Positions 30,447 to 58,600 of a stretch of 64,000 nt of DNA are shown here, piece after piece. Numbering within the stretch: position 1 is the first letter of the stretch; each line of letters begins with the position of its first letter. The translations under genes and the position numbers were made by a program. The stretch is from Candidatus Poribacteria bacterium (GTDB taxonomy: Bacteria; Poribacteria; WGA-4E; JAJDTR01), in NCBI GenBank assembly GCA_965208765.1, contig OZ242354.1, forward strand, positions 6,015,140 through 6,079,139. The letters run 5' to 3'. The notes under the pieces were generated by a model. The model did not search any database, was not told the origin of the DNA, and worked only from the letters and a program-made list of their open reading frames with translations.

Positions 30447-32891
30447 TTGACAATGAAAAAAGGTATTCCAATGCGAGTATTTCGGGTTATTCTAGCGGTG
30501 TTTTTGATAGCGTTAATAGTCGTATTCGGCACCATCTTCGTCGGGATCGGCTTCGTCGGCGGGGTAGTGCTCGCTTCCTGGGAAGACATCAAGGAGGTAA
30601 ATCTTCAGCAACTTGAATACAGGAAAGATGTTGACACGTGGCAGCAACATCTTGAAATATACTCTTCCATCTGTACGGTGCAACGGGGAGATTCGATCGA
30701 CTTTCTGCTAAGGAAACTTCAGCGTCTAGGCTACGAAGAAACACAACAGGGCTATATTAAACCCAGCGAGCCCGGCCAACTTACCAGGACTTTCGGTTCA
30801 TCGCGGACTTCGGGGATCATGTGGATATATCTCCTTGGTTTCCATTACCCATATTCGGACCGGAAACCGTATAGAGTAGAAATTGATGTGCGCGATCGAA
30901 AGGTTGAATCCATCCGCAACGATCTGGGCGAATATATGACTAGCTTTGATTTACAGCCGGAGTTGATTAGCGAGCTTTACGGTAAAGGAGATGAGGCGCG
31001 CGAACTCATTTCGCTTTCGGACATGCCGGACACGCTGTTGAAGGCGTTCCTCGCCGTGGAGGACAAGCGGTTTTACCAACATTGGGGTGTTGACATCATA
31101 GCTATAGGCCGCGCGCTTCTCCGAAACATACAGGATGGTACGCTACAGGGCGCAAGCACAATTACGCAGCAACTTACTCGAAATATTTATCTCGACCGCC
31201 AGAAGCGGATTCTGCGCAAAATCAAAGAGGCACTTCTTGCCGTGCGAATCGAGCGAGCTTTTTCCAAGGACGAAATATTCGAACGGTACCTAAATCTAAT
31301 TAACCTGGGACGCTACGGTTCTCGGGAAGTATTCGGTGTCCAAGAAGCCGCGAACAGTTACTTCGGAAAGCCCGTCTGGGAACTCGAAGTGCAAGAATGC
31401 GCGACACTTGCGGGCATACCCAAGTCTCCAACACTTTATTCACCGATCCGCAACCCCAAGGAATCGATGAACCGTCGTAATCTTGTTCTCGAACTGATGC
31501 GTAACGCGAGATACATTTCGCAAGATACTTACGAAGTAAGCCTAACTACACCTCTCGCGGTTGATTCGCCCGAGGACAATCAAAGACGGGAGGCTGGGCA
31601 TTTTATCGAGTACGTTCATCAACAGCTGGCGGACATGGAGCACCTCAAGGATCGGTTGTATAACCAGGGGTTGAAGGTGTATACGACGCTTGATATGTCC
31701 ATGCAGGAGGTCGCCGAGAAAGCAGTGGCGGATCATCTACGGCATCTGGACAAGGGCTTTTCAAGTCTGCCCGACTACGACGGCAACAAACTTAATCCCA
31801 ACGGGATAGACCCGAGGGAGAACTACCTGCAAGCAGCACTGGTTGCCTTTGAACCCCAGACAGGGTATATCAAATCAATGGTAGGGGGACGCGACTACTA
31901 TATCGCCCGTGGAGAGTTCAACTTCTTTAATCGCGCGGCAAATGCGCTCCGACAGCCAGGGTCTGCTTTCAAACCGATTGTACTTGCAGCTTTCTTTAAT
32001 CTACCGGTCCCGTTGGCAAACCCAGCAACCGTTGTCCGAGATGAGGCGTGGTCCTCTATTAGCAAATCGTGGAAGAAATGGACGCCACGAAATTACACAG
32101 ATAGGTACTTCGGGGACGTAACGTTACGCACGGTCCTTGAGAAGTCGATTAATGTTGCAACCGCAAAATTAATGAACGATCCCAATACGGTTAAACTCAG
32201 CGACGAGAAGGACGGGATTCGACGGACAATTGCCTTCGCCAAACGCTTGGGAATCGAAAGCAAACTGCCGGAATATCCCTCGCTTTCTCTGGGCGCAGGC
32301 GATGTGACGTTGCTTGAACTTACCGCAGCCTACTCGGTTTTTGCCAACGGCGGAATACGTGCGCAGCCTTGCAGCATTCAATATATCGAAGACCGTAACG
32401 GCGAGCTTCTATATGAGAACGAAATGAAACCCAAGAGAGTAGTTGCGGAGAGCGTGTCCTTTGTAATTACGAATGTAATGAAGGGCGTAATCGAGAACGG
32501 AACCGGCAGAAGAGCAATTCGAACTGGATTAAGGCGACCGGCAGCCGGCAAAACCGGAACGACGGATGACTACAAAGATGCGTGGTTCGTCGGGTACACG
32601 CCGCGTCTTGCTGCTGGCGTGTGGGTAGGATTTGACGATTCCCAGAAGAAGAACAAGAGAAGTCAAGGGGAGGGCGCCAAAGCCGCATTACCGATCTGGG
32701 CGCGATTTATGATTGAAGGGGCGAGGGGACCTATTGAGGACTTCCGTGAACCCCCAGGGGTTGCATTCCACGAAATTGACAAAGAAACAGGTTTGCTGAA
32801 GTACCCCGGCAAGTGCAATCCCGAGAATGTCATTCGCGAGGCGTTTCTTGAAGGCTATGCCCCTACTATGCTGTGTACAGCGCACAACTGA
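30447..32891 (+). CDS. mrcB: Class A penicillin-binding protein, PBP1B-like (UB2H-like segment, transglycosylase, transpeptidase)
   Basis: N-terminal TM helix; EDKRFYQHWG, GASTITQQL, RKIKE; SAFK, SIN, KTGT; LQRLGY..SEPG UB2H-like segment. PBP1B versus PBP1A assignment is tentative. Confidence 0.8.
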   Translation: MTMKKGIPMRVFRVILAVFLIALIVVFGTIFVGIGFVGGVVLASWEDIKEVNLQQLEYRKDVDTWQQHLEIYSSICTVQRGDSIDFLLRKLQRLGYEETQQGYIKPSEPGQLTRTFGSSRTSGIMWIYLLGFHYPYSDRKPYRVEIDVRDRKVESIRNDLGEYMTSFDLQPELISELYGKGDEARELISLSDMPDTLLKAFLAVEDKRFYQHWGVDIIAIGRALLRNIQDGTLQGASTITQQLTRNIYLDRQKRILRKIKEALLAVRIERAFSKDEIFERYLNLINLGRYGSREVFGVQEAANSYFGKPVWELEVQECATLAGIPKSPTLYSPIRNPKESMNRRNLVLELMRNARYISQDTYEVSLTTPLAVDSPEDNQRREAGHFIEYVHQQLADMEHLKDRLYNQGLKVYTTLDMSMQEVAEKAVADHLRHLDKGFSSLPDYDGNKLNPNGIDPRENYLQAALVAFEPQTGYIKSMVGGRDYYIARGEFNFFNRAANALRQPGSAFKPIVLAAFFNLPVPLANPATVVRDEAWSSISKSWKKWTPRNYTDRYFGDVTLRTVLEKSINVATAKLMNDPNTVKLSDEKDGIRRTIAFAKRLGIESKLPEYPSLSLGAGDVTLLELTAAYSVFANGGIRAQPCSIQYIEDRNGELLYENEMKPKRVVAESVSFVITNVMKGVIENGTGRRAIRTGLRRPAAGKTGTTDDYKDAWFVGYTPRLAAGVWVGFDDSQKKNKRSQGEGAKAALPIWARFMIEGARGPIEDFREPPGVAFHEIDKETGLLKYPGKCNPENVIREAFLEGYAPTMLCTAHN

Positions 32892-34292: not shown

Positions 34293-34356
34293 CAGATAAG
34301 TTGGGAACAGTGATTGTAATCCTTTGTGCCTACAGAGTCCTTTAGGAGGAAGCAAG

Positions 34357-37300
34357 ATGGGTAGAGCAGCAACATTTAGTGCAATGTTGTCATTTGGTTT
34401 GTTTATCTTGTCTATGGTCGCGCCCGCCAGCAGTACCGCCGATGGGCAGCAGACCTTAGGGCTCTCCGAGATTGCGGTGCAGATTCGAGACGAAGTTTCC
34501 GTAGGCGCCATGCGGAAAGACATCGCTCGGCTTTCCAGTCTCTCCACGCGTGTTACAGGCTATGACGAAGCAGCAAACGGTGCCAAATATGTCTTCGATC
34601 GTTTTGTTGAAATTGGCTTACAAAATATCGAGGCACGCGGTTTTGAAGTAACCGTGCCGATTGACGCAGAGGATGGAAAGCTTGAAATACTCTCGTCGGA
34701 TGGAGCAGTGATCAAGAGCGTCAAAATCTCTCCTTGTTGGCCCAACCTCGTACGAACCTCCCTTCTTCCTGACGGAATCAAGCATTTTGTCGATTCCGAT
34801 GAAACCCTTGAAGAGATTGCCGAATCCTACCAAGTTGAGGTTCAATCTATTCTCACCAATCCCCGCAATCAGTATCTACAGGATCAGGCGACTGACGGTC
34901 GCGACAATGACAGTGACGGCGACGTTGATGAAGCAGGCGAATTTGCACTGATTGAGGGGAATACCGTGTTCATTCCTACGGGCGGATTAACGGCGCCGTT
35001 GTTGTACGCCGGCGATGCCGAGCTTGTTGATTTTAACGGATTGGAGGTCGGCGGATTTTGGTACGAAGTGCAACCCGGCGACACTCTCGATAATGTTTCG
35101 CGCCGGTTTCGAGTGAGTCGAGGAAGCATTACCGATGACGTTCTGAACGGGCACCTGCAAAAGACGGAAGACGGCATCGACAATGATGAAGATTCCGAAG
35201 TAGACGAATATGGAGAGATTCCGCCACTTGAAGAAATCGCCCATTGGGGTAACGACGGGATTGACAATGACGGTGACGGTTACGTGGACGAAGTTCCCGG
35301 CGATGATAGAGATAGCGTAGACAATAATGGAGACGGGCAGATAGATGAGCCGGGCGAGTTTGTGGCGGCCGGTGAATCCAGCATCTTCATCCCGCAAGGA
35401 AGTATTGTTCTCGTAGACTTCAATTCCGGCACTCGCTGGATTAACGCCGCAATGTTGGGAGCCAAAGCGGCGATTTTCATCCAACCGGAGACCTCTATCC
35501 GCGGTGAAGCAGAGAACAAATTTCTGACTGTTCCCGCCAACATTCCTCGCTTCTGGATTTCCAAGGAGGACGCCGAGGAACTCCGGGAAATGATAGCCCA
35601 AGAAAATATATCCGCTCGTTTAACCTGTACCATGACGTGGGAACGTCGTACGGGACAAAATATCCGCGGGTTTCTTGAAGGCGGCGACCCCGTATTGAAA
35701 GATGAACTCGTCGTCCTTACGGCCTACTACGATTCGATGTCAATCGTTCCCGCCATGGCTCCCGGCGCTGATCCGACAGGGGGCATTGCCGCACTGCTTG
35801 AATTGGCGCGCATCTTCAGCCTCGATGAATTCCGCCCCGGTCGTTCCATGCTGTTCGTTGCAACCGACGCGCATTTCCAAGGTTTGACGGGTATGCGAGC
35901 TTTCATGGAGGGAATCGGGCAGGACACCGTAGGCGGAGCTACGGATTCACCGGGGACGCCTACGATGCAGGGTCTACGTCGGGGTTTATCCGCAGACATG
36001 TTTGAATTCCAGGAACTCGGGCGGAAACTGCTACTCTCCATTGACCGGAGCGTATTGGTGGACCTGCCTCCGGACTTCTACTACGATGTCCACGAGATTG
36101 AAGCGGATCTTGACTCACTAGCAACAACCCTCGGTGCTTTGTCCGGGACCCAAGGGAAAATCAGTTCTCTCCGCAACGCTCAACGCGACTTCAAAGAGAA
36201 ACAGAAGAAAAAAATCGAAACCACGAAAAAACGTGAGAAACAGGGTTTTACGGCGGAGGAAAAATCGCGTCTTGAAACATACCTGGCTTCCTTCAAGAAA
36301 AATTCTCTGCAAACAACTCACTTTCTACGTGACCTCGTATCACGGGTAGATCGACTTCGATCACAGGCATTGGAGGAATCTCGAAAAGCGCAGCGGGAGT
36401 TGCTTGAAAACGTGGCGCTGCCTATGGCGTATCTTGACGTCTGGGCGCTTGAACAGATGAAAAGGGATCTTGAGGAAAATCGGATATCGGACAGTTTTTC
36501 GCGTGAACCCTCAGAATCCTACGTTTTGCCCAGAAGAGTCGGCGACGCGTACGAGCTTCCAATCAATGCCGCCGGCGATACGCTGCTCCGGGAATACGTC
36601 AACATTCTCTCAGAGTATCTGGAAGGGTGGGAGCTGGGAGATTCTCGAAAATTCGCGCTCCAATACACGCAGGAAAAGCTGCTAGACCGCCACCTAGATT
36701 TTCACGGTCTTCAGCAGATTAAGAAATCGCGTAAGATCGCCAATAGAGCCACTAAACCGTTGGCGGACTATATCGCCCTTGAACGAGAGATGTTAGAACG
36801 CGCATTGGCGAAGATTCCCGACAGCGTTGACGCTGAAAACCAAATTAAATCGGCAATCACACAGCTTGCTACCAACCCGGCATACTATCCGCCGGAAGTC
36901 ATCTCAGAGCTAAATCAATATCTGAGTCAACCGACCATTGAGCGCTTGCATCGCACCCAGACCGGACTGCAGCAAAAGCTCAGAGAGGCGAAGACCACCG
37001 AAACAGATGATGCTTCACATGCGATTCTAGTCGCTGACTTTGCTAAGGACAAGCAGTCCATCTTTGAGACGGCGCTGCGAAATGCTCGACTGGAAAAGAA
37101 CCGGATCCGCAATCTACTGCGAAATCACGGAGAGTTGGTACGTGCCTATCTGGCAGAAGAGGAGCAGGTGCTTCATCACTATTTGTCGGAGGATGAAGTA
37201 GATCAGACTGTTGAAGCGCGTTCCCAGATCTTTGCCCACCTGTCCGAAGAGATGCTTCTTTCCTACGTGCAAAGAAAGGCTGCGAATGACGTTGTTGAGC

Positions 37301-40300
37301 TAAACAACCTCCTGAACCGATTGGATACGCTAGATCGCGATCTTAGCGAGGAGACAAAGATTCTTCTGCGTGACAACATGCTCACGCTCAGGAATTCCCG
37401 GTTTCGCAACCTGCAAAGCCGCATCGAGAAGATAGCCCGAATCAGTAAGTCCGAATACAACCGCAAGATTTCTCAGATAGAGCAAGCCATAACCCTCCAG
37501 GATCTCTTCAATCGCTACTACACCTCCCTCTTTATATCAATAGACCTCTCCACCCAGAGCGACAAATTCGGCGTATTCAATAAAGGTTGGTTCTACAATC
37601 AGCAGCCCGAATTTGTTCTGCGGCGGGAGTTTGCGTCGATCGGCAACAAACTCGCGGAGTATGCGGAGGACGCGGACTTCGGCGCACGAATCCGAAACCT
37701 GTGGACGTTCACCGATGATCAGATTCGGCAAGGCGTGTTGGATAATCAGTGGACCGTCGCGGGAACCATTGAATCAAAAGCGGCGGTGGAAGGGAAGACG
37801 CTTGAAACGCTTGTCAGCGAGCATTTTGACACACTCGTCAAACTTTCCGGAGTCTCGCGTTTGATGAAGATGCAGTTTGAGCAGATGCGCGATCGCGGAG
37901 AACCGTCCGAGGATATGGTCAAGGATATGGACTACATCCGGCAGGAGGTCGAACGATTTATCCGTAACGACGTGCGGACGGCTAGAAAAAACCGGAAGAA
38001 TAGTATTCGATTGCTAAATCGGCTTAACGCGATGCTGCAGCTAAGGCATGAGGATGCTTCGACACTATCGCAGGACGAAATCGAGGACATAAAATCATTG
38101 ATTGGACTCGTCGGTCTCGGCGGAGAAACAAACTTCGTGAATGCGATCTCCGCCAGCGGCGGAAAAACGTGGCAGACGTACATACCCGGAAAGATAGCAT
38201 TCGACAGCGAGGTTGCCACGCTAACCGGCAAAACCGGAATCGCATTCGCCACGATCGAAGACGCACGAATCCTTACGGACACTCCGCTGGATACGATTGA
38301 TCGAATGCATGTGGAGGAAGATGGGAATCTTCACCAACAGGTGAAAACGCTGGCAGCCATATTGGTACAAGCAATGCGCGACCCGAAGATGCCAACAGCC
38401 GCCAAGGTCGGAAACTTTTACTGTAATCTATTCGGGGATGTAGTAGAGTTTGATGCCCGTGAGAGCGCCTTGCCCAATAAACCGGTTCCTTATCCAATCT
38501 TGACGTTGCGGCGCAAACACAAGACGATGATGGGCGTTAGAGGCGACCTGTTCACCATGGGAGACAACAAGGGTAACTTTGAGGTCGCCGGACTGGCAAT
38601 GGAGGGGCGTGCGACACATCGAATCGCCGGCACTCAGGAGGTAGAAGCGTATATTCTTGATCCCGACTCCGGAGATATTGTTTACGCGCCGGACCTCGGA
38701 AACTACGGCGCCAAGTTACTGCCCAATAAAGTTCCGATTGACACGCGCCGCCGTGGTTGCCGCGTCGTCGTGTTTCCATGCGTGTCAACGACCATTTACG
38801 ACCTGGTTGACCAGCGTTATTTGCGCACCTTGCGCGAGCTTCAAGTCTACGAAGCCGCATCGGATAGCGCTCCGGAGAAATATGGGATATCCAAACCCTG
38901 GCAGCAAGAGGGCGTTTCGGCTGCCGAACCGATTGCGCTCGTCTATTCCGAGCCGGACGAACGCATTAAGATCGGTATGGCGTATGGACAGATTGGGAAA
39001 CGGTTGTTGTTGATTAAGGCGACGAAGAGCGGGATGAAGAATCCGACGCTCTACACAGGAGAGGGCTTCGTCGTACGAGAGAATGGCAGCATCCGTATGA
39101 CCCCTTACGTCGTGGTACGGGATATGTGGTGGCTCGATGAGAACCGGTCGCGCCTATACAAACGATTCGGGATCTCAAGCGACCGTCTTGACAGGTTGCA
39201 CGAATTTGCGCACGAATATCTTGAGCAAGCGGAACTGGCACTTCAGCAAAACGACTACCAGCAGGCACTGAAACTAGCCCGTGCGGCATGGGGTTATGAA
39301 TCCCGCGCCTACCCCGATGTCAAGAAGACGGGCAACGATGTGGTAAGCGGCGTGATGTTTTATCTTGCCCTCCTGATTCCATTCGCATATTTCATGGAAC
39401 GTCTGCTTTTCGCCTCTCCGAGCGTGAATAAGCAGATTCTCTGGACAGGAGTCATCTTCCTAACCGTCTTTTTCTTCCTATCTCAGGTGCACCCGGCTTT
39501 CCAAATTACGACTACCCCCGTGATAATCCTGATCGCTTTTATCGTTCTTGCTCTCACCGTGATTGTCATCTCAATCATCATCCGCAAGTTTGAGGAGCAA
39601 CTGGAAAAGATCAAACAGGAGGGTAGCACCGTATATAAGGCGGACGTTGGCAGGTTGTCGGCATCAGCGGCAGCGTTTAGCTTGGGGATTTCGAATATGA
39701 GGAAGAGGGGCGGACGGACGATATTGACGTGCGCCACATTAGTCATACTTACGTTCACGGTTATCTCATTCACGTCGGTCCGTACCTTCATGCACCCCAA
39801 CAAGACTAGCTTGCCCGCCGTTACGCCGCGTTATACGGGAATGTTGATTCGCGACCAATATTGGCGTCCATTAGAAGAGCCCGTATTGACCTCCGTTATG
39901 AACGACATGCGCAAGACCAAGATTCCCGAAGATGATGCGCGGCTTCTGTTCAAAAGGAGAGGAAAGACGGATGCCGAGATTAAATCACTCTTAGCGCCAT
40001 ATGTTGAGTCGGCGGAAGAGTCTTCGAATCTTGAGGGGGCTTCGGGCGATGTGACAACTGTTCGAGCATCGGTTGCGGGGTCTACGGGCGCGAATGAGCC
40101 TACACGATTCATCACCGTGCACAACGTGGTGGCACCCCGTGCATGGTACCAATCGTCCGGTACTGGGGACCAATCATTCGTGCAGTTGACGCGCACTCCG
40201 AATCCGGCGGATCCTGTCCCGCCTCGAGATCCGAAGACCGGTCAACTACTGCCCTATGCCGCAAATATGCTCATTGGAATGACGCCTAACGAGCCTTCCG

Positions 40301-41766
40301 CTACCGGCATCGATTTGCACCTCCAATACGGGAAATGGTTTGATCCGATGGATGAAGATTCTTGGCCCACGTCGTGGCCGTATGCCTGCATCCTGCCCAA
40401 AGGGATAGCGGACGTACTGAAGATATCAGAGACTGACGTAGGCAAAGCTACGGTTTCCGTCTACGGTGCGGATTTCACGGTCGTGGGAGTGCTTGGAATC
40501 GGATTTAAAGACTTGACCGACAACGACGGCGAAGAGATGACACCCGTCGACTACCAACTGATGCAACAGCAGCAGTCTCGCGGGGCACAGGGAGATGAAA
40601 CTTTGGAAGGGGAGTTGCAGAAGTACCTCCATTTGGTGCCGGACAGTGTGGCAATACTTCCGTATGAGGTGGTTATGAATCAGGGCGGTACCCTACGAAG
40701 CGTTGCTGTCAATATGGACCCCCTGGAAGGCGACCCGGACATCTTTAGCGGAATCGACAAACTTGATTTGATCATGTCGCCTTTGATGAGTCGAGTTGCC
40801 CTTGACTTCTTTGTTGGACGCGATAAAGATACGTACCTGTACAGTTCAATCGGGATGACCTCCTTCAGCGGGATGGGTAATCTATTCATACCGATTCTCA
40901 TTGCCGCGCTGATCGTGCTGAATACGATGCTTGGCGCTGTCTACGAACGCGTGAGAGAAATCGGGATTTACAGCTCGGTTGGGCTTGCACCCGTGCATAT
41001 CGCTTTCCTTTTCCTCGCGGAAGCCTGCGTCTATGCGATCGTCGGCGCCGTTTTAGGTTATCTTTTGGGACAAGCCACTGCGACAGTCATGGTGAACTTT
41101 GGCTGGCTCGCCGGTTTGACGCTGAACTACTCCTCTATGTCCACGGTGGTGGCAACCATCATTGTCATGATTGTGGTCATCGGGAGTACACTCTATCCTG
41201 CAATCAAAGCCTCGCGCATGGCGGTGCCCGACATCGAGCGCAAGTGGAAATTACCGGAGCCCGAGGGTGACGAATGGCACTTCAGCCTTCCGTTCACCGT
41301 ATTGTCCGAGGAATCGCTCGGTTTGAACGTATTCATGCGCGACTATTTCGATGCACATGCGGACGAATCCGCGAGCGACTTTTACACGGATCAGGTTACG
41401 TTCAGCGAAACGAGCACGGCGGAGAATGGTGAAGGGGAGGGTTCCTATTCGATAAGCATGATGGTTTGGCTTGCCCCCTATGATTTAGGTGTCAGCCAGT
41501 CGATCCGATTCGTTACCTCCCCAGTGGGCGGAGAAGAGGAGGATCTGTATAGTATTACACTAGATGTGCATCGGGAAAGCGGCGAAATCGCTTCGTGGAA
41601 ACGAGTTAACCGGCGTTTCTTGAATCTCGTTCGGAAGCAACTCTTAATTTGGCGGACTTTCAGTGCCGATATTCGCGGCGAGTTTCATGATCGAGGGCGA
41701 CAAGAGCGCGAAGCGGATGAGGGCACAAACGGCGCCCCGGAACTCGCGCCCCAGCCAGCCGATTAA
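34357..41766 (+). CDS. Giant membrane protein: signal peptide, 2 LysM-like domains, acidic DGxDNDxD repeats, PA/M28-like domain with helical inserts, TM bundle, MacB/FtsX-type ABC permease
   Basis: AGGAGG RBS before ATG 34357; YEVQPGDTLDNVSRRF; TAYYDSMSIVPAMAPGAD; NMRKRGGRTILT; LNTMLGAVYERVREIGIYSSVG..FLAEA. Confidence 0.85.
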   Translation: MGRAATFSAMLSFGLFILSMVAPASSTADGQQTLGLSEIAVQIRDEVSVGAMRKDIARLSSLSTRVTGYDEAANGAKYVFDRFVEIGLQNIEARGFEVTVPIDAEDGKLEILSSDGAVIKSVKISPCWPNLVRTSLLPDGIKHFVDSDETLEEIAESYQVEVQSILTNPRNQYLQDQATDGRDNDSDGDVDEAGEFALIEGNTVFIPTGGLTAPLLYAGDAELVDFNGLEVGGFWYEVQPGDTLDNVSRRFRVSRGSITDDVLNGHLQKTEDGIDNDEDSEVDEYGEIPPLEEIAHWGNDGIDNDGDGYVDEVPGDDRDSVDNNGDGQIDEPGEFVAAGESSIFIPQGSIVLVDFNSGTRWINAAMLGAKAAIFIQPETSIRGEAENKFLTVPANIPRFWISKEDAEELREMIAQENISARLTCTMTWERRTGQNIRGFLEGGDPVLKDELVVLTAYYDSMSIVPAMAPGADPTGGIAALLELARIFSLDEFRPGRSMLFVATDAHFQGLTGMRAFMEGIGQDTVGGATDSPGTPTMQGLRRGLSADMFEFQELGRKLLLSIDRSVLVDLPPDFYYDVHEIEADLDSLATTLGALSGTQGKISSLRNAQRDFKEKQKKKIETTKKREKQGFTAEEKSRLETYLASFKKNSLQTTHFLRDLVSRVDRLRSQALEESRKAQRELLENVALPMAYLDVWALEQMKRDLEENRISDSFSREPSESYVLPRRVGDAYELPINAAGDTLLREYVNILSEYLEGWELGDSRKFALQYTQEKLLDRHLDFHGLQQIKKSRKIANRATKPLADYIALEREMLERALAKIPDSVDAENQIKSAITQLATNPAYYPPEVISELNQYLSQPTIERLHRTQTGLQQKLREAKTTETDDASHAILVADFAKDKQSIFETALRNARLEKNRIRNLLRNHGELVRAYLAEEEQVLHHYLSEDEVDQTVEARSQIFAHLSEEMLLSYVQRKAANDVVELNNLLNRLDTLDRDLSEETKILLRDNMLTLRNSRFRNLQSRIEKIARISKSEYNRKISQIEQAITLQDLFNRYYTSLFISIDLSTQSDKFGVFNKGWFYNQQPEFVLRREFASIGNKLAEYAEDADFGARIRNLWTFTDDQIRQGVLDNQWTVAGTIESKAAVEGKTLETLVSEHFDTLVKLSGVSRLMKMQFEQMRDRGEPSEDMVKDMDYIRQEVERFIRNDVRTARKNRKNSIRLLNRLNAMLQLRHEDASTLSQDEIEDIKSLIGLVGLGGETNFVNAISASGGKTWQTYIPGKIAFDSEVATLTGKTGIAFATIEDARILTDTPLDTIDRMHVEEDGNLHQQVKTLAAILVQAMRDPKMPTAAKVGNFYCNLFGDVVEFDARESALPNKPVPYPILTLRRKHKTMMGVRGDLFTMGDNKGNFEVAGLAMEGRATHRIAGTQEVEAYILDPDSGDIVYAPDLGNYGAKLLPNKVPIDTRRRGCRVVVFPCVSTTIYDLVDQRYLRTLRELQVYEAASDSAPEKYGISKPWQQEGVSAAEPIALVYSEPDERIKIGMAYGQIGKRLLLIKATKSGMKNPTLYTGEGFVVRENGSIRMTPYVVVRDMWWLDENRSRLYKRFGISSDRLDRLHEFAHEYLEQAELALQQNDYQQALKLARAAWGYESRAYPDVKKTGNDVVSGVMFYLALLIPFAYFMERLLFASPSVNKQILWTGVIFLTVFFFLSQVHPAFQITTTPVIILIAFIVLALTVIVISIIIRKFEEQLEKIKQEGSTVYKADVGRLSASAAAFSLGISNMRKRGGRTILTCATLVILTFTVISFTSVRTFMHPNKTSLPAVTPRYTGMLIRDQYWRPLEEPVLTSVMNDMRKTKIPEDDARLLFKRRGKTDAEIKSLLAPYVESAEESSNLEGASGDVTTVRASVAGSTGANEPTRFITVHNVVAPRAWYQSSGTGDQSFVQLTRTPNPADPVPPRDPKTGQLLPYAANMLIGMTPNEPSATGIDLHLQYGKWFDPMDEDSWPTSWPYACILPKGIADVLKISETDVGKATVSVYGADFTVVGVLGIGFKDLTDNDGEEMTPVDYQLMQQQQSRGAQGDETLEGELQKYLHLVPDSVAILPYEVVMNQGGTLRSVAVNMDPLEGDPDIFSGIDKLDLIMSPLMSRVALDFFVGRDKDTYLYSSIGMTSFSGMGNLFIPILIAALIVLNTMLGAVYERVREIGIYSSVGLAPVHIAFLFLAEACVYAIVGAVLGYLLGQATATVMVNFGWLAGLTLNYSSMSTVVATIIVMIVVIGSTLYPAIKASRMAVPDIERKWKLPEPEGDEWHFSLPFTVLSEESLGLNVFMRDYFDAHADESASDFYTDQVTFSETSTAENGEGEGSYSISMMVWLAPYDLGVSQSIRFVTSPVGGEEEDLYSITLDVHRESGEIASWKRVNRRFLNLVRKQLLIWRTFSADIRGEFHDRGRQEREADEGTNGAPELAPQPAD

Positions 41767-42192: not shown

Positions 42193-44184
42193 TTGGCGAG
42201 AGAGAGAGTATCTCAAGCAGATGAGTGGCAGGCTTGGGCGCAGCGATACGACATAGACGGCGGGATCCGAACGTTTGAGTCCGGATTGACGTTGAAGGTC
42301 TTCTTAGGCGCGCTTTTTGTCGGGCTGCTGATGATGCCGGGGTCAATTTATCTTAGCTATGTATCCGGACAATCCGGAGCAGGGGCGGCGCCGTGGGTAG
42401 CTGTCATTCTGTTTACGGAATTGGCGCGCCGCTCGTTTACGACCGCTCGTCGGCAGGAGTTGTATATGCTGCTTGGATTGACAGGGGCTGCCGTCGGCGC
42501 GGGCACTCAGTATCGCGGTTTCATCTGGTATGCGTATTTTATCAATACCCCGCAAGCGGAATCTTATGAGATTGCGGACAAGATTCCCTTCTGGATCGCG
42601 CCCGCGAGGGATTCAATCGCCATTGCCGAGAGATCGCTTTTGCACATGGATTGGTTCTGGCCCATCGCCTTCTTCCTGATCTTCAAATTCCTAGGAACCA
42701 TCCGCGGTATCAGTGCCGGTTATATTCTTTTTCGACTAACCGCTGACCTGGAGCGGCTACCTTATCCGTTGGCGCCGATAGATGCACAAGGGGCGACAGC
42801 ATTGGCTGAAACTACCGGAAGAACCGAGACCTGGCGCTGGCGAGTCTTTTCAATCGGATCAATGGCAGGTCTAATTTGGGGATTCATCTACGTTGGTGTA
42901 CCGTCGCTTACCGGCGTCATGATGACGAAACCGATCGAGATCTTGAAAATCCCATTCATCGACTTCACGCCGAGCATTGAGGGTTTTGCGCCGACCGGGG
43001 TGTTCGCGTTATCCACCGATTTCGGGCAGATGCTGGTCGGATTCGTGATGCCGTTCCCGATAATCATCTCGGAATTCATCACCGCGATGTTATCCCAGTT
43101 TATTTTAAACCCGCAAATCTTACATCGTTTCGAGATACTACATCAGTGGAAAGCCGGATTGGATGTACGGGGTGTCGGGTTGTATAACGGACTTGATTTC
43201 TGGATTAGTTACGGTATGGGCAAGTCCTTCAGCTTCGCGGTTGTCGGTATAGCGGCATCTGTCCCAATGCTGATTAAATTCAGGAAGTCGCAAGCTCAGA
43301 AGACGGGGCAGCGCGGTTCGCTCCGTCCCCCGCCGGGACGCGGTGATTTTCCAATCTGGTTGATGGGACTTCTGTGGCTCTTCGGCATGGGAACGTTCGT
43401 GTGGCTGGTGCACTGGATGGTACCGAACTTTCCGCTTACATTCCTTCTAGGTTTTGCGTTCCTGTACACCCCGTTGAACTCCTACATTACCGCGCGTACA
43501 TTCGGAATCTTGGGACGCGACCTCTTTGAAATCCCTTATATCCATGAAACCACCTTTATCCTCAGCCGCTACGAGGAGATTGACATCTGGTTCGTTCCGC
43601 TACCCGACGAAGATTACGGGCGCGGGACACAGGGTTGGCGTGTGCTTGAACTGACAGGGACGACATTTACCAGTAATATCGCGGCTCAACTGCTTATCAT
43701 GCCAATTCTGCTGGTCTCGGGAATTGTTGTCTACCATTTCATTTGGAAGATCGCGCCGATTCCTTCATCGCAGTATCCTTACGTACAAACGTGGTGGCCG
43801 ATTCATGCTACCAATGAAGCACTCTGGAAGACCTCGCTTCGCGATGGAAACAGTCAGATGTTGCAGGCGATTCGAGGTGATTATGTTGCCGCCGGGTTCT
43901 CGTCAACCCTCGCTTTGTACGGGCTGTTGTGGGTCGTGAAGATGCCGAGTATGTGGTTCTACGGGATCGCAGGTGGAATCGGCGGCGACCCGGGAATGAT
44001 GATACCCCGACTGCTCGGCGCGGTAATTGGACGATTCTATATGATTAAGCGGTTTGGATTGAAGCGGTGGTTCATGTTTAATCCGGTGTTGGCAGCCGGG
44101 TTTGCCTGCGGCGTCGGTCTTATCGGCATGGGCACGGTGGCGATTGCATTGGTGTCGAAAGCCGTGATTGTGAAGCCGTTCTGA
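42193..44184 (+). CDS. OPT/peptide-transporter-like polytopic membrane protein
   Basis: TTG start after AAAGGAG; many TM segments; ERLPYPLAP motif shared with 4241..6184. Confidence 0.72.
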   Translation: MARERVSQADEWQAWAQRYDIDGGIRTFESGLTLKVFLGALFVGLLMMPGSIYLSYVSGQSGAGAAPWVAVILFTELARRSFTTARRQELYMLLGLTGAAVGAGTQYRGFIWYAYFINTPQAESYEIADKIPFWIAPARDSIAIAERSLLHMDWFWPIAFFLIFKFLGTIRGISAGYILFRLTADLERLPYPLAPIDAQGATALAETTGRTETWRWRVFSIGSMAGLIWGFIYVGVPSLTGVMMTKPIEILKIPFIDFTPSIEGFAPTGVFALSTDFGQMLVGFVMPFPIIISEFITAMLSQFILNPQILHRFEILHQWKAGLDVRGVGLYNGLDFWISYGMGKSFSFAVVGIAASVPMLIKFRKSQAQKTGQRGSLRPPPGRGDFPIWLMGLLWLFGMGTFVWLVHWMVPNFPLTFLLGFAFLYTPLNSYITARTFGILGRDLFEIPYIHETTFILSRYEEIDIWFVPLPDEDYGRGTQGWRVLELTGTTFTSNIAAQLLIMPILLVSGIVVYHFIWKIAPIPSSQYPYVQTWWPIHATNEALWKTSLRDGNSQMLQAIRGDYVAAGFSSTLALYGLLWVVKMPSMWFYGIAGGIGGDPGMMIPRLLGAVIGRFYMIKRFGLKRWFMFNPVLAAGFACGVGLIGMGTVAIALVSKAVIVKPF

Positions 44185-44220: not shown

Positions 44221-44365
44221 TTCATGAACAGTCCAAGTTAATCCACTCACAGTTGTTTCCCGCTCGGCTTGGATCGCCAAATTCAAGCCGTCACCGATGA
44301 CGTTGTTAATCCGCGGGATCAGAATTAGATGCAGCACGGCTAATTTGTTTGAAGCTAAACCGACC

Positions 44366-45295
44366 ATGGATTGGACGACATTTGGATGGGCGGGTATTCG
44401 ACTTGAGATTCCTTCCAACTGGGAGTTGAGCGGATTATCGGGAGATGAGAAAGATGGTTACCTACGGTTAGACGGGGAGGAGATGCCCCGCTTGGAGTTG
44501 AAGTGGGCGCAGTCGAAAAAGAAAAAACCGGATCTTGGCCGCGTGCTGGATGAGTACTTCAAACTCGTGCGCAAGAACTACAAGCGTAAAGAGGCTAAGT
44601 TGCACATTCAGCGGCATGTGAACTTGGTAAAAGATGAGGCTGTATTCGAAGGGCGCGAAGTAATCAGTTTCACGTGGAAAGGGGACATACGCGCAAACGG
44701 TATCATTTTTCATTGCCATACGTGTAAGCGCATTACGATAGTTCAGGTAATGGGGCATCTCAAGGAGAATCTGCGCGCAACAACTGTTAGAGTGTTGCAA
44801 TCGGTGCAAGACCATCCGACCGACCAAAACGTGCTTTGGAGCGCCTATAATCTCAATGTGGAGGTCCCGCGCCGCTATCGCTTGGGGAAGCACCAACTGC
44901 TTTCCGGTTACTTACTTTTCTCGTTTGCCGACGGGAGCCGTAAAATCAGCATCGAACGGTACGGAGTAGCGGATGTAACGCTCAAAGAGCAGGACCTCGA
45001 GTCGTGGTTCCGAGCGAAATACGCAAAAGCCATCGGCGGATACGGTTTTGAAATAACCTCGCGGACGCATGACGGGGACGAGCAACTTCAGGTGATTGGC
45101 GAACAAACACGCGTCACCGATCGCATTCCGTTCGCCCCTGTGTTGGCGGTGGATAAGGTGATGCGCCGTCAGGTATTCGCGGCACATCTTTGGCGCTGCC
45201 ATCAATCAAATCGGATTTATGTTGTGCAGGCGACCGCCAAACGTGACGCTGCCAAGATCGGCCGAGATGTTGCGGCGAGTATAAAGTGTCATTAG
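44366..45295 (+). CDS. Hypothetical cytoplasmic protein with two similar halves
   Basis: GWAGIRLEIPSNWEL..GYLRL vs WSAYNLNVEVPRRYRL..GYLLF; inside the operon. Confidence 0.7.
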   Translation: MDWTTFGWAGIRLEIPSNWELSGLSGDEKDGYLRLDGEEMPRLELKWAQSKKKKPDLGRVLDEYFKLVRKNYKRKEAKLHIQRHVNLVKDEAVFEGREVISFTWKGDIRANGIIFHCHTCKRITIVQVMGHLKENLRATTVRVLQSVQDHPTDQNVLWSAYNLNVEVPRRYRLGKHQLLSGYLLFSFADGSRKISIERYGVADVTLKEQDLESWFRAKYAKAIGGYGFEITSRTHDGDEQLQVIGEQTRVTDRIPFAPVLAVDKVMRRQVFAAHLWRCHQSNRIYVVQATAKRDAAKIGRDVAASIKCH

Positions 45296-45316: not shown

Positions 45317-45736
45317 ATGCTTAACGCACTTCTTTATAAACTGCGGCTAAAAAAGCGGCCGGATTCCGACTTTAATCGCGGCGATGTCCTGAAAGCGCTA
45401 CCGCTGCGGAATCAGCTCATCACGTGGGAGGTTGACGACAAACAGGAGGTGTCGCTCGTAATCCCGCAGAAACAGAGATTTTGGATTCGGATTGCGTCAA
45501 AGCTGTTTACGCTGCCGGATAAGAGAGTCATCGTACTGGATGATGTCGGGTCCTTTGTTTGGCAGCTTTGCGACGGACAGAATACGGTGGGTCACGTCGT
45601 CAAGCAACTTTGCAACCGCTATCAGATGACTCGCAAAGAGGCGGAGACATCGCTGTTCACGTATATGCGTCAGCTAGGAAAACGCGGTATTATCGGATTT
45701 GCTGTACCGAAAGACATGAAGGGAGGAAAGAAATAA
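45317..45736 (+). CDS. PqqD-family / RiPP recognition element-like protein
   Basis: LDDVGSFVWQLCDGQNTVGHVVKQLCNRY...LFTYMRQLGKRGII. Confidence 0.82.
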   Translation: MLNALLYKLRLKKRPDSDFNRGDVLKALPLRNQLITWEVDDKQEVSLVIPQKQRFWIRIASKLFTLPDKRVIVLDDVGSFVWQLCDGQNTVGHVVKQLCNRYQMTRKEAETSLFTYMRQLGKRGIIGFAVPKDMKGGKK

Positions 45737-45739
45737 CAT

Positions 45740-46555
45740 ATGGCAGACGTTCAGACAACTCAGCCCGCCGCCGGCGCGACGGCGCCTGAGATCCCAACAC
45801 GGCTTCGGCGAGATTTGCCGAAGGAAAACACGGTGCGGGTACGGAATCTTATCAAGAAGTATGAGATGGGTACGACAGTCGTCGAAGCATTACGGGGCGC
45901 CAACTTTCAAATCGCCCGGGGAGAGTATATCTCAATCATGGGACCGTCGGGCTCCGGGAAGTCAACGCTCTTCAATATGATTGGCGGATTGGATAAGCCA
46001 ACGGAGGGCAGGGTATATATCGACGAGGTCGACATCGCTCAACTGGATGCTTACGAGTTGGCGTGGCTGCGGTGCCGAAAAATCGGGTACATCTTCCAAT
46101 CGTTCAACCTGATTCCGGTGATGACCGCGCTTGAGAATGTGTCACTGCCGATGGTTTTCGCAGGTATGTCCGCCGACGAAAGCCGTGACAAAGCGGTTGA
46201 CTTGTTGACACTTGTCGGTCTGGGTGAGCGGGTTCAGCATAAACCGCTGGAACTCTCGGGCGGACAGCAGCAGCGCGTCGCCATAGCGCGCTCGCTTGCG
46301 AACGATCCGGCGATTGTGTTGGCGGACGAGCCAACCGGAAACTTGGATACTCGAACCGGACTGGAGATTATCGCGTTGCTGAGGAAGCTAAACGAGGACA
46401 ACGGTGTGACGGTCATTACCGCTACGCACGACACCAAGATGCTTGATGTGTCCGACAGAATCTTCCATATGGTCGATGGACGCGTGAGCAAGATTGAGTC
46501 GCGCGACGAGATCGACCTGCATGTCGGCAGGCTTGACGGGGAAGAAGTGGGTTAA
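45740..46555 (+). CDS. ABC transporter ATP-binding protein, LolD/MacB type
   Basis: [43 protein letters not shown]-loop. Confidence 0.95.
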
Positions 46556-46771: not shown

Positions 46772-48418
<1,647 letters not shown>

Positions 48419-51533: not shown

Positions 51534-54500
51534 ATACGTGCTTTGCTCGGTGCACGGGAATCGTCCGTGGTATCCTCCGAACCGTGCAAATCCGCGATTT
51601 GGGTTTTTATACAAACACTCATGAGTTGGGTTTCACGAAGTTCAACCCAACCTACGGACCGAGAAAGAGGGTATCTAACCTTAACCAAAACATACGGAGA
51701 ATAAGACATGAGCGAACCAAAAAAGAAAATCGAAGATGCGCTTCACCAATTCACTGACGATAACCTCGCCAACAACGCCAAACACCTTCTCAATGTCCTC
51801 GGATACGAAAGCGGGCGAACCATGCGTCTTAGGCCGAACACGGCCGACGGATTCCTTGAATTTTACAATCAAGACCCTGAGAGTTGCACGCACCAAGGTG
51901 GTGCGCTTAAAGAGGAATGCGAGTCAATTGATTTCATATTTCAGGTGACCAAAGATGAAGTCCCATATATTAGGGAATCGTCAGAGAATCACGGCGATGC
52001 TAAATACGATGAAAGCATCTTTAGGTCCTACCTCTTCTTCGCTCTGAAACTTCGTGGCGACCAATACTCTCGCACAAAACTATCCCAGATTACCCGCGAA
52101 ATCAACAAACTGGATAATAAGCCCGCCATGATTCTCTTCCAACACGGAGAGGCGCTCACCTTGGCGGTCATCGACCGCCGACTTAATAAACAGGTGCCAG
52201 ACAGAGATGTGCTCCTGAAAGCAACCCTCATCAAAGACATCAACTTTGCCAATCCTCACCGCGCGCACATCGACATCCTGTTTGATCTTTCGATTGACGA
52301 ACTACATGGGGAGCACAGATTCAGAAACTTTGATCAACTTCATGAAGCGTGGAGACAGGCACTAGACACCGAGCCGCTCAACAGGCAATTCTACCAAAAG
52401 CTATTTAAATGGTTTGAGTGGGCAGTACGCGAGGCAAAGTTTCCAGACAAGGAGAAACGCAATTTGAAGCCCGAGGAGCACGTCATTCGGCTAATCACAC
52501 GCTTGTTGTTCGTCTGGTTTATCAAAGAGAAAGGACTGGTATCGGAAGAACTATTCGACGAAACGAAAGTTGGTCGCTTACTAGAGGATTATGACACCGA
52601 GACTGGAGATTCCTATTACCGTGCTGTATTGCAGAACCTATTCTTTGCCACGTTGAACACCGAAATTGAGAAGCGTCGGTTCAGCAAAGGCAAATCCGAC
52701 CATCGCAACTTTTCCGTGTATCGCTACAGAGATCAGATGGAAGATTCAGATGCGCTTCAGAAGCTGTTCGATAAAACCCCATTCATCAATGGAGGATTAT
52801 TTGACTGCCTTGATGACTTCAAGGGAATAAAAGCGGGCGGCTCGCGCATTGACTGTTTTTCAAACGAGCATTACGGGAAGCTGTCGATCCCTAATCGACT
52901 CTTCTTTGACGAAGACCGGGGTTTATACTCTCTTCTGACACACTACAAGTTCACGGTGGAGGAGAACACGCCGATAGAGCTAGAGGTCGCACTGGATCCT
53001 GAGTTGCTTGGTCGGGTGTTTGAAAACCTGCTAGCCGCATACAACCCTGAAACTGGTGAGACTGTGCGTAGGCAAACTGGCTCATACTATACGCCGCGCG
53101 CTATTGTGGACTATATGGTGGAGGAGGCATTGGTAGCCATACTAACAAGACAAGTGGCACCAACGAATGAAAATACAGAATTGTGGGAAGAGGAGTTGCG
53201 TTATCTCTTCGATTATGCACAGGAATGTGACGATGCGAACGAATGGTTTAATGACGATGAGACAGACAGGATTGTGCAGGCAATTTCAGAATTGAAGATT
53301 CTGGATCCGGCTGTCGGATCGGGTGCATTTCCGATGGGTGTATTGCACAAATTGACTTTGGCACTGCGACGACTAGATCCAGACAACACCCGTTGGAAAC
53401 AATTACAGGAACAACATGCCGGAAAGCGTGCCTCTGGAGTGTTTAGGACGCAAGATGACAAGACGCGACGCGAAAAACTCCTTGAAATCGATGAGACCTT
53501 CAAGCGATATCGGGATTCCGACTTTGGACGAAAGTTGTACCTCATCCAAAATGGTATATATGGTGTGGACATTCAACCTGTGGCTTGCCAAATCGCCAAA
53601 CTTCGCTTCTTTATATCCCTTGTAATTGAGCAAGAACCGGATAGAGATGCCAGTAACTTCGGTATTAAGCCCCTGCCGAATCTAGAAACTCGCTTTGTCG
53701 CCGCGGACACACTCATTGCGTTGGAGTTGTCAGAAACGCGTTTGTTACTGCAAGAGGATAGTGTGCAGCGATTGATCAACGAGATTGAGGGAATTCGTGA
53801 TCAGCATTTTCTTACAAACAACCGGCAGCGGAAACTTGATCTTGAAGACCAGGAAGATGAATTTCGCGAACGGTTGAAACAGGAATTAGAAGATCAGAGA
53901 GCAAAATGGGTCGAGATTCAGCGGCGAGAAATTGAACGAAAGATCGACCGCCTTCCGAAACCGGAACAACGCGAGCAATTACGGGAAGTGGAGGAGAAAA
54001 AGTATGAGAAGCGCAAAAAAGAATTTGATTCCGCCTTTGAAGATGCCCGGAAAATCGCAGACTGGAAGCCCTACGACCAGAATGCAAGTGCGGACTGGTT
54101 TGACCCAGAAGGGATGTTCGGCATCGCCAACGGTTTTGATTTAGTGATTGGTAACCCGCCTTATGTTCAATTGCAGAAAAACGGCGGTAAATTAGGACGA
54201 TTATATGCACCGTGCAATTTTGACAGTTTTACAAAAACGGGGGACATCTATTGTCTATTCTATGAGAAAGGAATCCAACTGCTAACGGAGCGCGGACATT
54301 TGTGTTTCATCACATCCAATAAGTGGATGCGCACAGCCTATGGCAAAAGGCTACGGGATTATTTTATCCACAACATTCAACCCGTACAACTGCTGGACAT
54401 GGGGCCTGATGTGTTCGATGCTACAGTGGACACGAACATTCTGTTGTTACGGGACGCCGCGAATGCAGAACGCACCGCCTTCAAAGCCGTGACCATCAAA

Positions 54501-55136
54501 CCTGACTTCGACCAACAGGAAGGGAACATCGCCCAATATCTGGAAGATAATGGAATGGTTATGGAAATACCTGCCAAAGGCGAACCTTGGGCTATACTCT
54601 CCCCTGCAGAGATTGTCATGAAGCGCAAAATTGAGGATATCGGTAGACCTCTCCGAGACTGGGAAGCAGATGTCTATCGTGGAATAATCACAGGCTGCAA
54701 CGAAGCTTTTGTCATAGACGAATCCAAGCGCGAGGAGTTGGTTGCGCAAGACTCAAAGTCTGCAGAAATCATAAAGCCACTCTTGCGAGGGCGAGACATC
54801 GCGCGTTACTATGTCCGGCCATCTAAATTATATTTACTTATTACCGGTTATGATCTTGATGTTCCGAACATGTATCCCGCCGTCTATAATCACCTTGAAA
54901 CCATGGGAAAACAGATAGAAGCGGGAGAAATACGAGTAAAGGGTAAAGGGTTATTCAACAGAGATGATCAAGGTGAAAACTGGTGGAATCTCAGGGCTTG
55001 CAGTTACTACGCCGACTTTGATAAGGACAAAATTGTGTGGCAAGAGATGGTAAGTCACGGCACATTCTCTGTTGATAATTCCAATTCCTATTCGCTCGAC
55101 ACTACTAGTACACGTTGGCAGAAATAGTTAAGAGGT

Positions 55137-55880
55137 TTAGGCAGTTAAAGGCCTGCCTTTGTACGTCCATTTAAACGGTTTAGCCATCGTTTGATTAAAG
55201 TAAGAAATAAAAGATAAAATGCGTTGATGTAATTCTTGTACAGAACCGAAAGATGCCCGTTTGAGCAATCGACGAACGAGAATTGAAAACCAAATTTCAA
55301 CTTGATTTAACCAACTGGTGTGCTTCGGGAGATAAACGAACCGTATCCGATGGGTTTTGTCTTTGAGGAATTCGGATCGACTCCCCATTGATTTTAGAAT
55401 GCCTCGTCTACCTTTTTCTCCCAAATCTCCCTCAATACCACATTGTTTGGCCACTAACCGAACCAGAGATTCGGATTTGTGAGTATTGAGTTGATCGACG
55501 ATAAATATCCACTCGCCGTGGCTATCGCTGTCTATAGTCGTTTGGATATGGGCTGCAAAATCGACTTCGGTTCGTGTGGGAGCTAGACTTGGGCAAAGCA
55601 CAAGTCCGGTTGCCACTTCAAAGTTGGCAATTAAACTCAAGGTACCATGACGAATGTATTCAAATTCTTGGCGTTCGATAATCCCGGGTCTCATCGGTTT
55701 TGTGGGTGCTTTTCGCTCTGTTGCTTGTATACCTGTCATCTCATCACAACTCACCAGGTGAGTGGATTGTTGAGCCAACTCTTGAGCTTGATGGTACAAG
55801 TCACACACTTCCTTCACTTCAGCATCGAACGTCTCCTCTTTTTTCGGGTTGAGCCAATACCGACATTGGTGAGGTTTCAA
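55137..55880 (-). CDS. IS630 transposase OrfB (DDE domain)
   Basis: SCDE, EYIRHGT, VDQLNTH, PKHTSWLNQVEIWFS. Confidence 0.9.
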   Translation of the reverse strand: MKPHQCRYWLNPKKEETFDAEVKEVCDLYHQAQELAQQSTHLVSCDEMTGIQATERKAPTKPMRPGIIERQEFEYIRHGTLSLIANFEVATGLVLCPSLAPTRTEVDFAAHIQTTIDSDSHGEWIFIVDQLNTHKSESLVRLVAKQCGIEGDLGEKGRRGILKSMGSRSEFLKDKTHRIRFVYLPKHTSWLNQVEIWFSILVRRLLKRASFGSVQELHQRILSFISYFNQTMAKPFKWTYKGRPLTA

Positions 55881-57870: not shown

Positions 57871-57894
57871 ATATCAATAAGGAGGAGTATCCAA

Positions 57895-58590: not shown

Positions 58591-58600
58591 AGGAGGAGGC

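Follow-up and report, generated by a model that had tools for sequence, protein, structure and literature searches.

M28-derived pseudo-enzymes, among them the transferrin receptor (TfR), nicastrin, nicalin and GPAA1, are receptor or scaffold subunits of membrane complexes in eukaryotes, and how they bind substrates is debated. Nicalin works with NOMO and TMEM147 in the BOS complex of the multipass translocon of the endoplasmic reticulum (7tm3 chain 7, 6w6l chain 5, 9c7u), and nicastrin works with presenilin, APH-1 and PEN-2 in gamma-secretase (5a63, 4uis, 4r12). Passages of PMC2647162 assign nicastrin to the aminopeptidase/TfR superfamily, present it as a proposed substrate receptor, and describe its DYIGS motif (residues 336-340) with a preceding conserved Glu, E333. 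Among ATP-binding cassette (ABC) systems, those of Type VII, such as MacAB-TolC, LolCDE, FtsEX-EnvC and YbbAP-TesA, have a four-helix FtsX-type core, a periplasmic domain between transmembrane helices TM1 and TM2, and a LolD/MacB/FtsE-type ATPase; parts of the literature on them describe work done outside the membrane ("mechanotransmission"). The gene studied here lies at 34357..41766 on the forward strand of a 64,000-nucleotide stretch (the window; contig OZ242354.1, positions 6,015,140 to 6,079,139) of a Candidatus Poribacteria bacterium, described as a sponge symbiont. Its product is a MacB/FtsX-type (Type VII) ABC permease that carries a PA plus M28 aminopeptidase-fold ectodomain in one chain.

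Residues ~40-1350 form a leucyl-aminopeptidase (M28) fold that bears a PA domain, is predicted to lie on the outer side of the cytoplasmic membrane and is fused to the Type VII permease. The two-zinc site of M28 peptidases is not retained; its place is taken by a family-wide pocket made of an invariant H517 and the conserved D470, S473, D1074, D1294/E1296 and D1323. Judged from sequence and models, the domain is an M28-derived pseudo-enzyme or neo-enzyme and not an M28 peptidase, since the profile match and the fold are there and the catalytic residues are not. The pseudo-aminopeptidase idea of the eukaryotic complexes appears here in bacteria, in one chain with a mechanotransmitting ABC engine, in many phyla and in nearly every sampled Poribacteria genome. 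Literature searches covering papers outside subscription journals found nothing linking an M28 domain to an FtsX/MacB permease, no mention of an aminopeptidase among the papers listed on Type VII mechanotransmission, and no relevant work on bacterial or prokaryotic homologues of nicastrin or nicalin.

The M28 fold and the permease that carries it

Pfam Peptidase_M28 (PF04389) recognises aa 446-529 in the whole protein (31.5 bits, E 1.8e-7) and scores 36 bits (E 7.8e-9) on aa 350-559 alone, both against a cut-off of 21.3, and it matches 21/21 catalytic lobes of the family. The match is limited to profile positions 1-78 of 193. Four further M28 genes of the source genome match that profile from position 1 to positions 180-191. 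Pfam gave no match at E<=10 in aa 1060-1459 or in aa 1359-1692, and a PDB sequence search with aa 1160-1459 returned matches at chance level only; the C-terminal half of the domain was placed via the family alignment and structure models, not by a direct sequence match. These results bear out the M28 assignment of the original prediction made for this window, in that the profile match exceeds its cut-off and is not due to chance and that an alpha/beta fold was found.

The fold was modelled in two proteins. P0141, a compact homologue of 881 aa that is cut by a contig end in its first transmembrane cluster, gave a model with pLDDT 92.4 and pTM 0.88 from a 54-row alignment, and Foldseek matched it best to the aminopeptidase 2ek8 (E 2.6e-26), next to BSAP/YwaD, PaAP and 3iib, and then to TfR and GCPII. 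The window protein was modelled over aa 151-1350, with the first 110 residues of the fold not included, at pLDDT 80 and pTM 0.52. In this model three core pieces that are separated in sequence assemble into the strands and helices of an M28 lobe, and the inserts between them are long helices (e.g., aa 583-630, 644-717 and 956-1002).

The open reading frame (ORF) of the permease spans 34324..41766 (+). The probable start is ATG 34357, giving 2469 aa, because a database copy (P0002, 2469 aa) is identical from M12 on (residues 12-2480); residue numbers are counted from 34324, not from ATG 34357. In the whole protein, Pfam FtsX matches aa 2188-2299 at 46.3 bits (cut-off 25.5), MacB_PCD stays at 20.3 bits, under its cut-off of 27, and LysM is borderline. 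On sub-sequences, LysM reaches 26.7 bits in two stretches and PA scores 23.7 bits against a cut-off of 23.9. A 58-row profile of the whole family matches MacB at E 2.6e-22, and LolC, LolE, LolF and YtrF as well. A hydropathy scan found eight hydrophobic segments: aa 15-33, three in aa 1673-1752, and aa 1799-1817, 2188-2206, 2226-2244 and 2272-2290. Given these segments and the known MacB layout, aa ~34-1672 and 1818-2187 are predicted to lie outside the cytoplasm. The marks of a Type VII permease are thus present: the FtsX domain scores above its cut-off, the periplasmic domain sits between TM1 and TM2, and the operon encodes a LolD-type ATPase. The features of the gene are as follows.

34366..34422 (+): N-terminal hydrophobic segment (aa 15-33), a signal peptide or membrane anchor, from hydropathy; it would keep the 1640 aa that follow on the non-cytoplasmic side
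34441..34773 (+): first segment of the M28 fold (aa ~40-150); the family profile aligns to 2ek8 from position 39, and the structural alignment of the aminopeptidase AAP covers residues 28-484 of the homologue P0141
34774..35643 (+): PA domain (aa ~151-440) with two Poribacteria-specific inserts, from Pfam PA and LysM; insert occupancy 0.02-0.16
35644..35910 (+): M28 catalytic lobe, part 1 (aa 441-529), from Pfam M28 profile positions 1-78, the AAP alignment and column counts; holds Y468 (35725-35727), D470, S473, APGA-D483 (35770-35772), H517 (35872-35874) and F518
35911..37503 (+): helical insert 1 (aa 530-1060); occupancy 0.02-0.2, helices in the model, block pLDDT mostly 80-94
37504..37683 (+): M28 catalytic lobe, part 2 (aa 1061-1120), with a strand ending in D1074 (37543-37545), from the family alignment and model strand aa 1066-1074
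37684..38103 (+): helical insert 2 (aa 1121-1260), Poribacteria-specific; occupancy 0.02-0.03, helices in the model
38104..38373 (+): M28 catalytic lobe, part 3 (aa 1261-1350), from the family alignment and a YwaD second-domain alignment; holds D1294-S-E1296, T1310, R1315, D1319 (38278-38280, the H256 position) and T-P-x-D1323
38374..39339 (+): conserved beta-rich domains and helical hairpin leading from the M28 fold to the membrane (aa ~1351-1672); occupancy 0.73-1.0; in the P0141 model, strands 497-692 and helices 720-768
39340..39579 (+): three extra transmembrane segments (aa 1673-1752) before the MacB core, from hydropathy and helices 772-880 of the P0141 model
39718..41220 (+): MacB/FtsX core with TM1 (aa 1799-1817), periplasmic domain and TM2-4 (aa 2188-2290), from Pfam FtsX and MacB_PCD and the family profile

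The original prediction had placed the domain at 35650..38330. The motifs it quoted do fall there, but the fold also takes in aa ~40-150, which lie upstream of that interval. By alignment occupancy there are five lineage-specific inserts, aa ~150-220, 241-355, 530-1060, 1121-1260 and 1861-1935, and the largest, helical insert 1, is missing from most of the family. In Poribacteria, long helices (~670 aa) project from the catalytic lobe, and the LysM-like units and acidic repeats of the PA domain probably make wall or cation contacts. The two PA-domain inserts (aa ~150-220 and 241-355) each hold one LysM-like unit and Asp-rich repeats. These repeats, D-G-I-D-N-D-G-D-G-x-V-D-E, flank the LysM-like units at 34864-34968 and 35161-35373 (aa ~181-215 and 280-350); they have a weak NCBIfam match to 'acidic double-disulfide repeat' (E 0.0013), pLDDT is below 50 there in the window model, and we take them to resemble calcium-binding repeats.

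The window protein shares with the Type VII systems named above the four-helix FtsX-type core, the periplasmic domain between TM1 and TM2 and the LolD/MacB/FtsE-type ATPase. Unlike them, it has an N-terminal extension of ~1640 aa (~800 aa in compact family members) made up of the pseudo-aminopeptidase, the beta domains and three extra transmembrane helices, and its operon adds a 663-aa membrane protein, a 332-aa protein and a PqqD-like protein. It also differs from the PA-M28 aminopeptidases (2ek8 of Aneurinibacillus AM-1; Bacillus subtilis BSAP/YwaD, 6hc6) in that the domain is tethered to the membrane, fused to an ABC permease and, in Poribacteria, split by ~850 aa of inserts. Compared with TfR1 and GCPII (M28B), the window protein has other substitutions, and a helical dimerisation domain like theirs was not identified in it.

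The rebuilt active site

In Aeromonas/Vibrio AAP (1amp, 1rtq) the M28 zinc ligands are H97, D117, E152, D179 and H256, with the numbering checked on the chain; E152 and H256 are Zn1 ligands, H97 is a Zn2 ligand, and E151 is the general-base Glu. Equivalences were read from a HMMER alignment over AAP chain residues 88-159, in classical chain numbering. All three strings quoted in the original prediction are present: TAYYDSMS...LELAR at aa 466-496 (35719-35811), FVATDAHFQG at aa 511-520 (35854-35883) and TDTPLDT at aa 1318-1324 (38275-38295). Its reading of the HxD motif as YYD was confirmed, with H97 corresponding to Y468 and D99 kept as D470. The EE motif is indeed replaced; it reads HF (E151 is H517 and E152 is F518), and not DAH as had been thought, the earlier alignment being one position off. 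The C-terminal YHT motif of the domain is likewise replaced, with H256 corresponding to D1319; this placement comes from the family alignment and from a weak second-domain alignment between the family profile and YwaD, 'vDtPlDt' against 'YHTPEDS'. The bridging Asp is uncertain and not simply lost: the loop is one residue shorter than that of AAP, the HMMER alignment sets D116 against D483 and D117 against P484, and the D483/P484 register is ambiguous. D1074 in LFISIDLS, which had escaped notice, is kept and is the likely D179 equivalent, placed via the family alignment and a strand end in the model.

At the five ligand positions the window protein thus has Y468, D483/P484, F518, D1074 and D1319, which is not the canonical zinc set, and it has His (H517) for the general-base Glu. 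Against the PA-M28 aminopeptidases and AAP, three of the five zinc ligands (Y468, F518, D1319) and the general base (H517) are replaced. In searches with the single sequence, the top PDB match was 2anp, the AAP E151H mutant (E 1.4e-5, against 1.8e-4 for wild-type AAP); 2anp outscores the wild type because it, too, has His at the E151 position. The title of the 2anp entry calls that mutant 'Functional'.

To place these replacements in the family, aa 350-559 were scanned with HMMER against 1.84 billion cluster representatives. At E<=0.001 the scan matched 3624 proteins; 967 of these also pass 1e-10, and 248 pass 1e-30, the last group typically having 1450-1700 aa. Among the 150 matches listed, most have 1400-1700 aa, and the Poribacterial protein is therefore an enlarged form. 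The counts below come from alignment A2, which holds 107 sequences, the window protein (P0001) and 106 of the 150 listed. It left out 44 rows, nearly all of them fragments of less than ~1000 aa, plus P0177, P0217, P0220, P0231, P0240 and P0245, and it includes rows missed by the regular expression for APGA. An earlier set of 58 rows (A1) was picked with a regular expression that already finds APGA, so that its 58/58 for APGA is partly circular. Residue counts among the 107 sequences, with the window residue after each position, were:

H97 position, Y468: Y77, H19, F4, other 7
D99 position, D470: D107
D116 position, D483: E58, D20, other 29
E151 position, H517: H106, T1
E152 position, F518: F40, H21, Y12, W10, C7, other 17
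D179 position, D1074: D91, E6, Q6, other 4
H256 position, D1319: D66, other 41
No AAP equivalent, D1323: D99
No AAP equivalent, E1296: E90

The commonest six-position signature is Y-E-H-F-D-D (22/107), and the window's own, Y-D-H-F-D-D, occurs in 6/107. A single sequence has metal-capable residues at all six positions, and the canonical two-zinc site is therefore not a property of the family. The strongest conservation in the ectodomain lies at the former active-site positions, D470, S473, the APGA loop, H517, D1074 and D1323. The pocket thus looks rebuilt and not decayed, with its conserved residues gathered around the invariant His at the general-base position. The description of the domain as catalytically dead holds in part: the canonical mechanism has gone, given the changes E152 to F518, H256 to D1319 and H97 to Y468 and the lone metal-capable sequence, but this is not plain decay, since His stands at the general-base position in 106 of 107. 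A conserved, rebuilt pocket is open to experiment, and naming its ligand would give an uncharacterised envelope system a function.

Possible kinship with nicalin and the proposed use of the pocket

The original prediction had called the domain nicastrin/nicalin-like and had seen in it a substrate-gating receptor domain. With the 58-row family profile, 2ek8 scored best (E 2.1e-33, 118.1 bits), YwaD gave 5.4e-25, TfR ~3e-15 and AAP 8e-14; nicalin followed at E 3.5e-12 (47.8 bits, with both halves of the lobe covered), behind 2ek8, YwaD, MacB, TfR, LolC, AAP and YtrF, and nicastrin reached E 0.038. This preference for active PA-M28 aminopeptidases (2ek8, YwaD) over nicalin and nicastrin goes against the proposed kinship, and it is an outcome that the original prediction had itself named as refuting. 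A catalytic-lobe profile built from 21 loci of other phyla placed nicalin third: YwaD scored 44.4 bits, AAP-E151H 40.3, nicalin 38.5 and 35.7, wild-type AAP 34.8, 2ek8 28.1, nicastrin 18.3 (E 0.011), and TfR 13.9, with TfR and GCPIII at just 13-14 bits. Foldseek matched the window model to BSAP first (E 3.6e-4) and to nicalin at rank 23 (E 2.8e-3), and structure comparison with that model gave 16.0 for 2ek8 (root-mean-square deviation 8.3 Å), 15.3-15.7 for AAP (199-203 residues aligned), 14.0-14.9 for nicastrin (318-339 aligned, 3.6-4.6 Å) and 14.0-15.0 for TfR. Neither nicalin nor nicastrin was among the matches listed for the P0141 model (the best 50 of Foldseek and two VIA lists), which means only that they scored below the rows listed.

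A local likeness to nicalin was found in the motif segment of 44-46 residues. The DS-x-S and APGAD elements of the proposed DS-x-S-x4-APGA[DE] pattern are present, with a spacing of x5 and not x4. When the motif segment of the window protein was searched against solved structures, nicalin came first (E 7.9e-5, next protein 0.44); it was also first for an Armatimonadota segment (E 0.035 against 0.46-0.71) and for a 44-column family motif profile (E 4.6e-6 against 0.002-0.005). Nicalin tops these searches because its spacing from the HxD Asp to GA[DE] equals that of the M28-permease family, whereas in YwaD and 2ek8 this spacing is four residues shorter and in AAP four longer. A special link to nicastrin through the motif was considered and rejected, nicastrin being absent from all 16 matches of the motif profile. 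Pfam Nicastrin (PF05450) gave no match at E<=10 on window aa 350-559 and touches 4/21 family lobes, the best at E 0.054, which is not significant; a pattern search found no D[YF]IGS motif anywhere in the 2469-aa protein, so that the DYIGS motif of nicastrin is not there. By these comparisons the domain is not a member of the Nicastrin family, and a tie to nicalin closer than shared M28 ancestry is unproven. The earlier label survives for the motif segment and for nicalin only; nicastrin is marginal (E 0.011-0.038), and nicalin is not the closest relative overall. Nicalin differs further in keeping His at the H97 position, in having Gly-Lys at the general-base position where the permease family has His followed by an aromatic residue, and in working with other partners, in another cell compartment and without fusion to an ABC permease; the operon partners of the window protein are of the ABC type.

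We favour, with moderate confidence, a reading in which the ectodomain most likely no longer trims peptides. Its former substrate pocket, now rebuilt, would bind a ligand, in the simplest and probable case a peptide by its free N-terminus. The pocket would be coupled mechanically to the ABC core, and movements that ATP drives in the MacB part would reach the ectodomain or its cargo. Its partners would be three products of the genes downstream: the 663-aa membrane protein, the PqqD-like chaperone and the ATPase of the LolD type. We regard the ectodomain as a probable binding module rather than a special relative of nicastrin, its likeness to nicalin being local. Several observations pull the other way. 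That the general-base position carries an invariant His speaks for chemistry and not just binding, as does the AAP E151H mutant, which its entry title calls functional; His is kept at the H97 position in 19/107 and occurs at the E152 position in 21/107; and a Zn1-like set is found in 15/107 and a Zn2-like set in 10/107. Further, the PqqD matches lie under curated cut-offs, the 663-aa partner has no recognisable family, and the pocket ligand is only a candidate. The domain might still be an enzyme, a hydrolase or transferase with a rebuilt, mono-metal or metal-free site formed by H517 with D470, D1074 and E1296, which the ABC engine feeds or regulates. We regard this as possible but doubtful, given that aromatic residues prevail at the E152 position (F40, Y12 and W10 of 107), that the H256 position is variable, with D in 66/107, that the H97 position is Tyr in 77/107, that the full metal-capable set is confined to that one sequence, and that Pfam M28 recognises only the first 78 of its 193 positions.

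That the fold is a scaffold only, a rigid platform for the PA domain, LysM units and helical arms (a spacer, wall anchor or docking surface) with a functionless old pocket, we consider unlikely. Surface loops in both lobes accommodate large lineage-specific inserts, and LysM-like units are present, as such a role would have it, and there is a precedent in FtsEX, a Type VII ABC system that, in parts of the literature on it, moves the coiled-coil adaptor EnvC with its degenerate, dead peptidase-like LytM domain. However, conservation in the ectodomain peaks at the former active site (D470, S473, the APGA loop, H517, D1074 and D1323), and the compact majority of the family does without LysM and helical arms. 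We consider it distinctly unlikely, in view of the profile rankings above, that the domain has a special kinship with nicalin and/or nicastrin and, as is proposed for them, serves as an inactive ectodomain that takes in substrates, or gates them sterically, for the membrane machine to which it is tethered. It is also improbable that this family, with its PA plus M28 pseudo-aminopeptidase ectodomain tethered to a membrane machine, forms a prokaryotic sister group to nicalin and, at a greater distance, to nicastrin. If it did, the eukaryotic design of an inactive aminopeptidase as receptor or gate would have arisen only once and come down from an envelope machine of bacteria, and the shared 10-residue HxD-to-GA[DE] loop and the two-lobe arrangement would be inherited characters; a true nicalin link would bear on the origin of the eukaryotic pseudo-aminopeptidase subunits.

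Operon partners, relatives and neighbouring genes

Four genes follow the permease gene on the same strand.

42193..44184 (+): 663-aa multipass membrane protein, 3' of the permease in at least 51/79 related loci (tblastn)
44297..45295 (+): 332-aa protein, in at least 41/79 related loci (tblastn)
45317..45736 (+): 139-aa protein with a PqqD-like domain (peptide chaperone, of the recognition element type for ribosomally synthesized and post-translationally modified peptides), between the 332-aa gene and the ATPase gene
45740..46555 (+): LolD/MacB/FtsE-type ABC ATPase; Pfam ABC_tran E 1.2e-34, NCBIfam LolD E 6e-69

The 663-aa protein has no sequence match in Pfam, NCBIfam or PDB, and the 332-aa protein has no significant family match and belongs to no known family. 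For the 139-aa protein, NCBIfam matches range from 1.3e-8 to 4.7e-7 (SCM_PqqD_rel E 1.3e-8, PQQ_PqqD E 2.3e-8), all of them below the curated cut-offs. The ATPase gene accompanies the permease in at least 26/79 related loci (tblastn), a bound set by flank length; the partner counts over the 79 loci are lower bounds throughout, many loci ending early. In a block of Latescibacterota loci the partner genes do not lie within 10 kb. The system is a conserved Type VII ABC machine, and the PqqD-like chaperone and LolD/MacB-type ATPase in its operon suggest peptide handling.

The 79 loci were kept from 230 relatives confirmed in a pattern scan of species genomes, and the relatives lie in contigs titled Armatimonadota, Latescibacterota, Gemmatimonadota, Kiritimatiellia, Zixiibacteriota, Planctomycetota and Omnitrophota. 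Because their loci were found with the patterns [IV]ESYYDSM and WPN..RTS, alignments A6 and A7 are biased towards Tyr at the H97 position. In the phylum itself, the gene was found at E<=1e-20 in 99/101 sampled genomes. When the whole length was searched, 622 of 7159 candidate proteins matched at E<=0.001; the 120 matches listed have 68-100% identity and lengths of 2233-2731 aa and, where a source names them, carry the Candidatus Poribacteria names 'LysM peptidoglycan-binding domain-containing protein', 'M28 family peptidase' and 'hypothetical protein'. Outside the window, the same genome encodes a second giant paralogue at 2277935-2285677 (+), a 2580-aa open frame with 71% identity over aa 351-559 and the same YYD, GH-F, SVDLS and TDTPLDT residues, and two copies of the giant gene also occur in all seven other sampled genomes of the source's family. 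One related locus (L044, JBPBQB010000001.1) comes from a metagenome-assembled genome labelled Janthinobacterium lividum; it groups with the Armatimonadales and Capsulimonadaceae loci, sharing their 272-aa lobe and motifs, and is probably on a mis-binned contig.

Upstream of the permease gene, a class A penicillin-binding protein, PBP1a, is encoded at 30447-32891 (+) (Pfam transglycosylase E 2.9e-60, transpeptidase E 1.7e-25). It was considered as a part of the system and rejected, as it adjoins the permease in just 1/79 related loci. Beyond the operon, a 543-aa ORF at 46772-48403 (-) reads by eye like the chaperonin GroEL, with a GGM-type tail, and the long antisense ORF that overlaps it is probably spurious. 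Farther downstream, at 51708-55127 (+), a 1139-aa ORF with a 'GNPPYV' motif, which we take to be of the N6-adenine-methyltransferase type, lies where the guanine-plus-cytosine content drops from ~0.52 to 0.45-0.47 (profile over 52000-60000); it may encode a restriction-modification protein of an acquired island.

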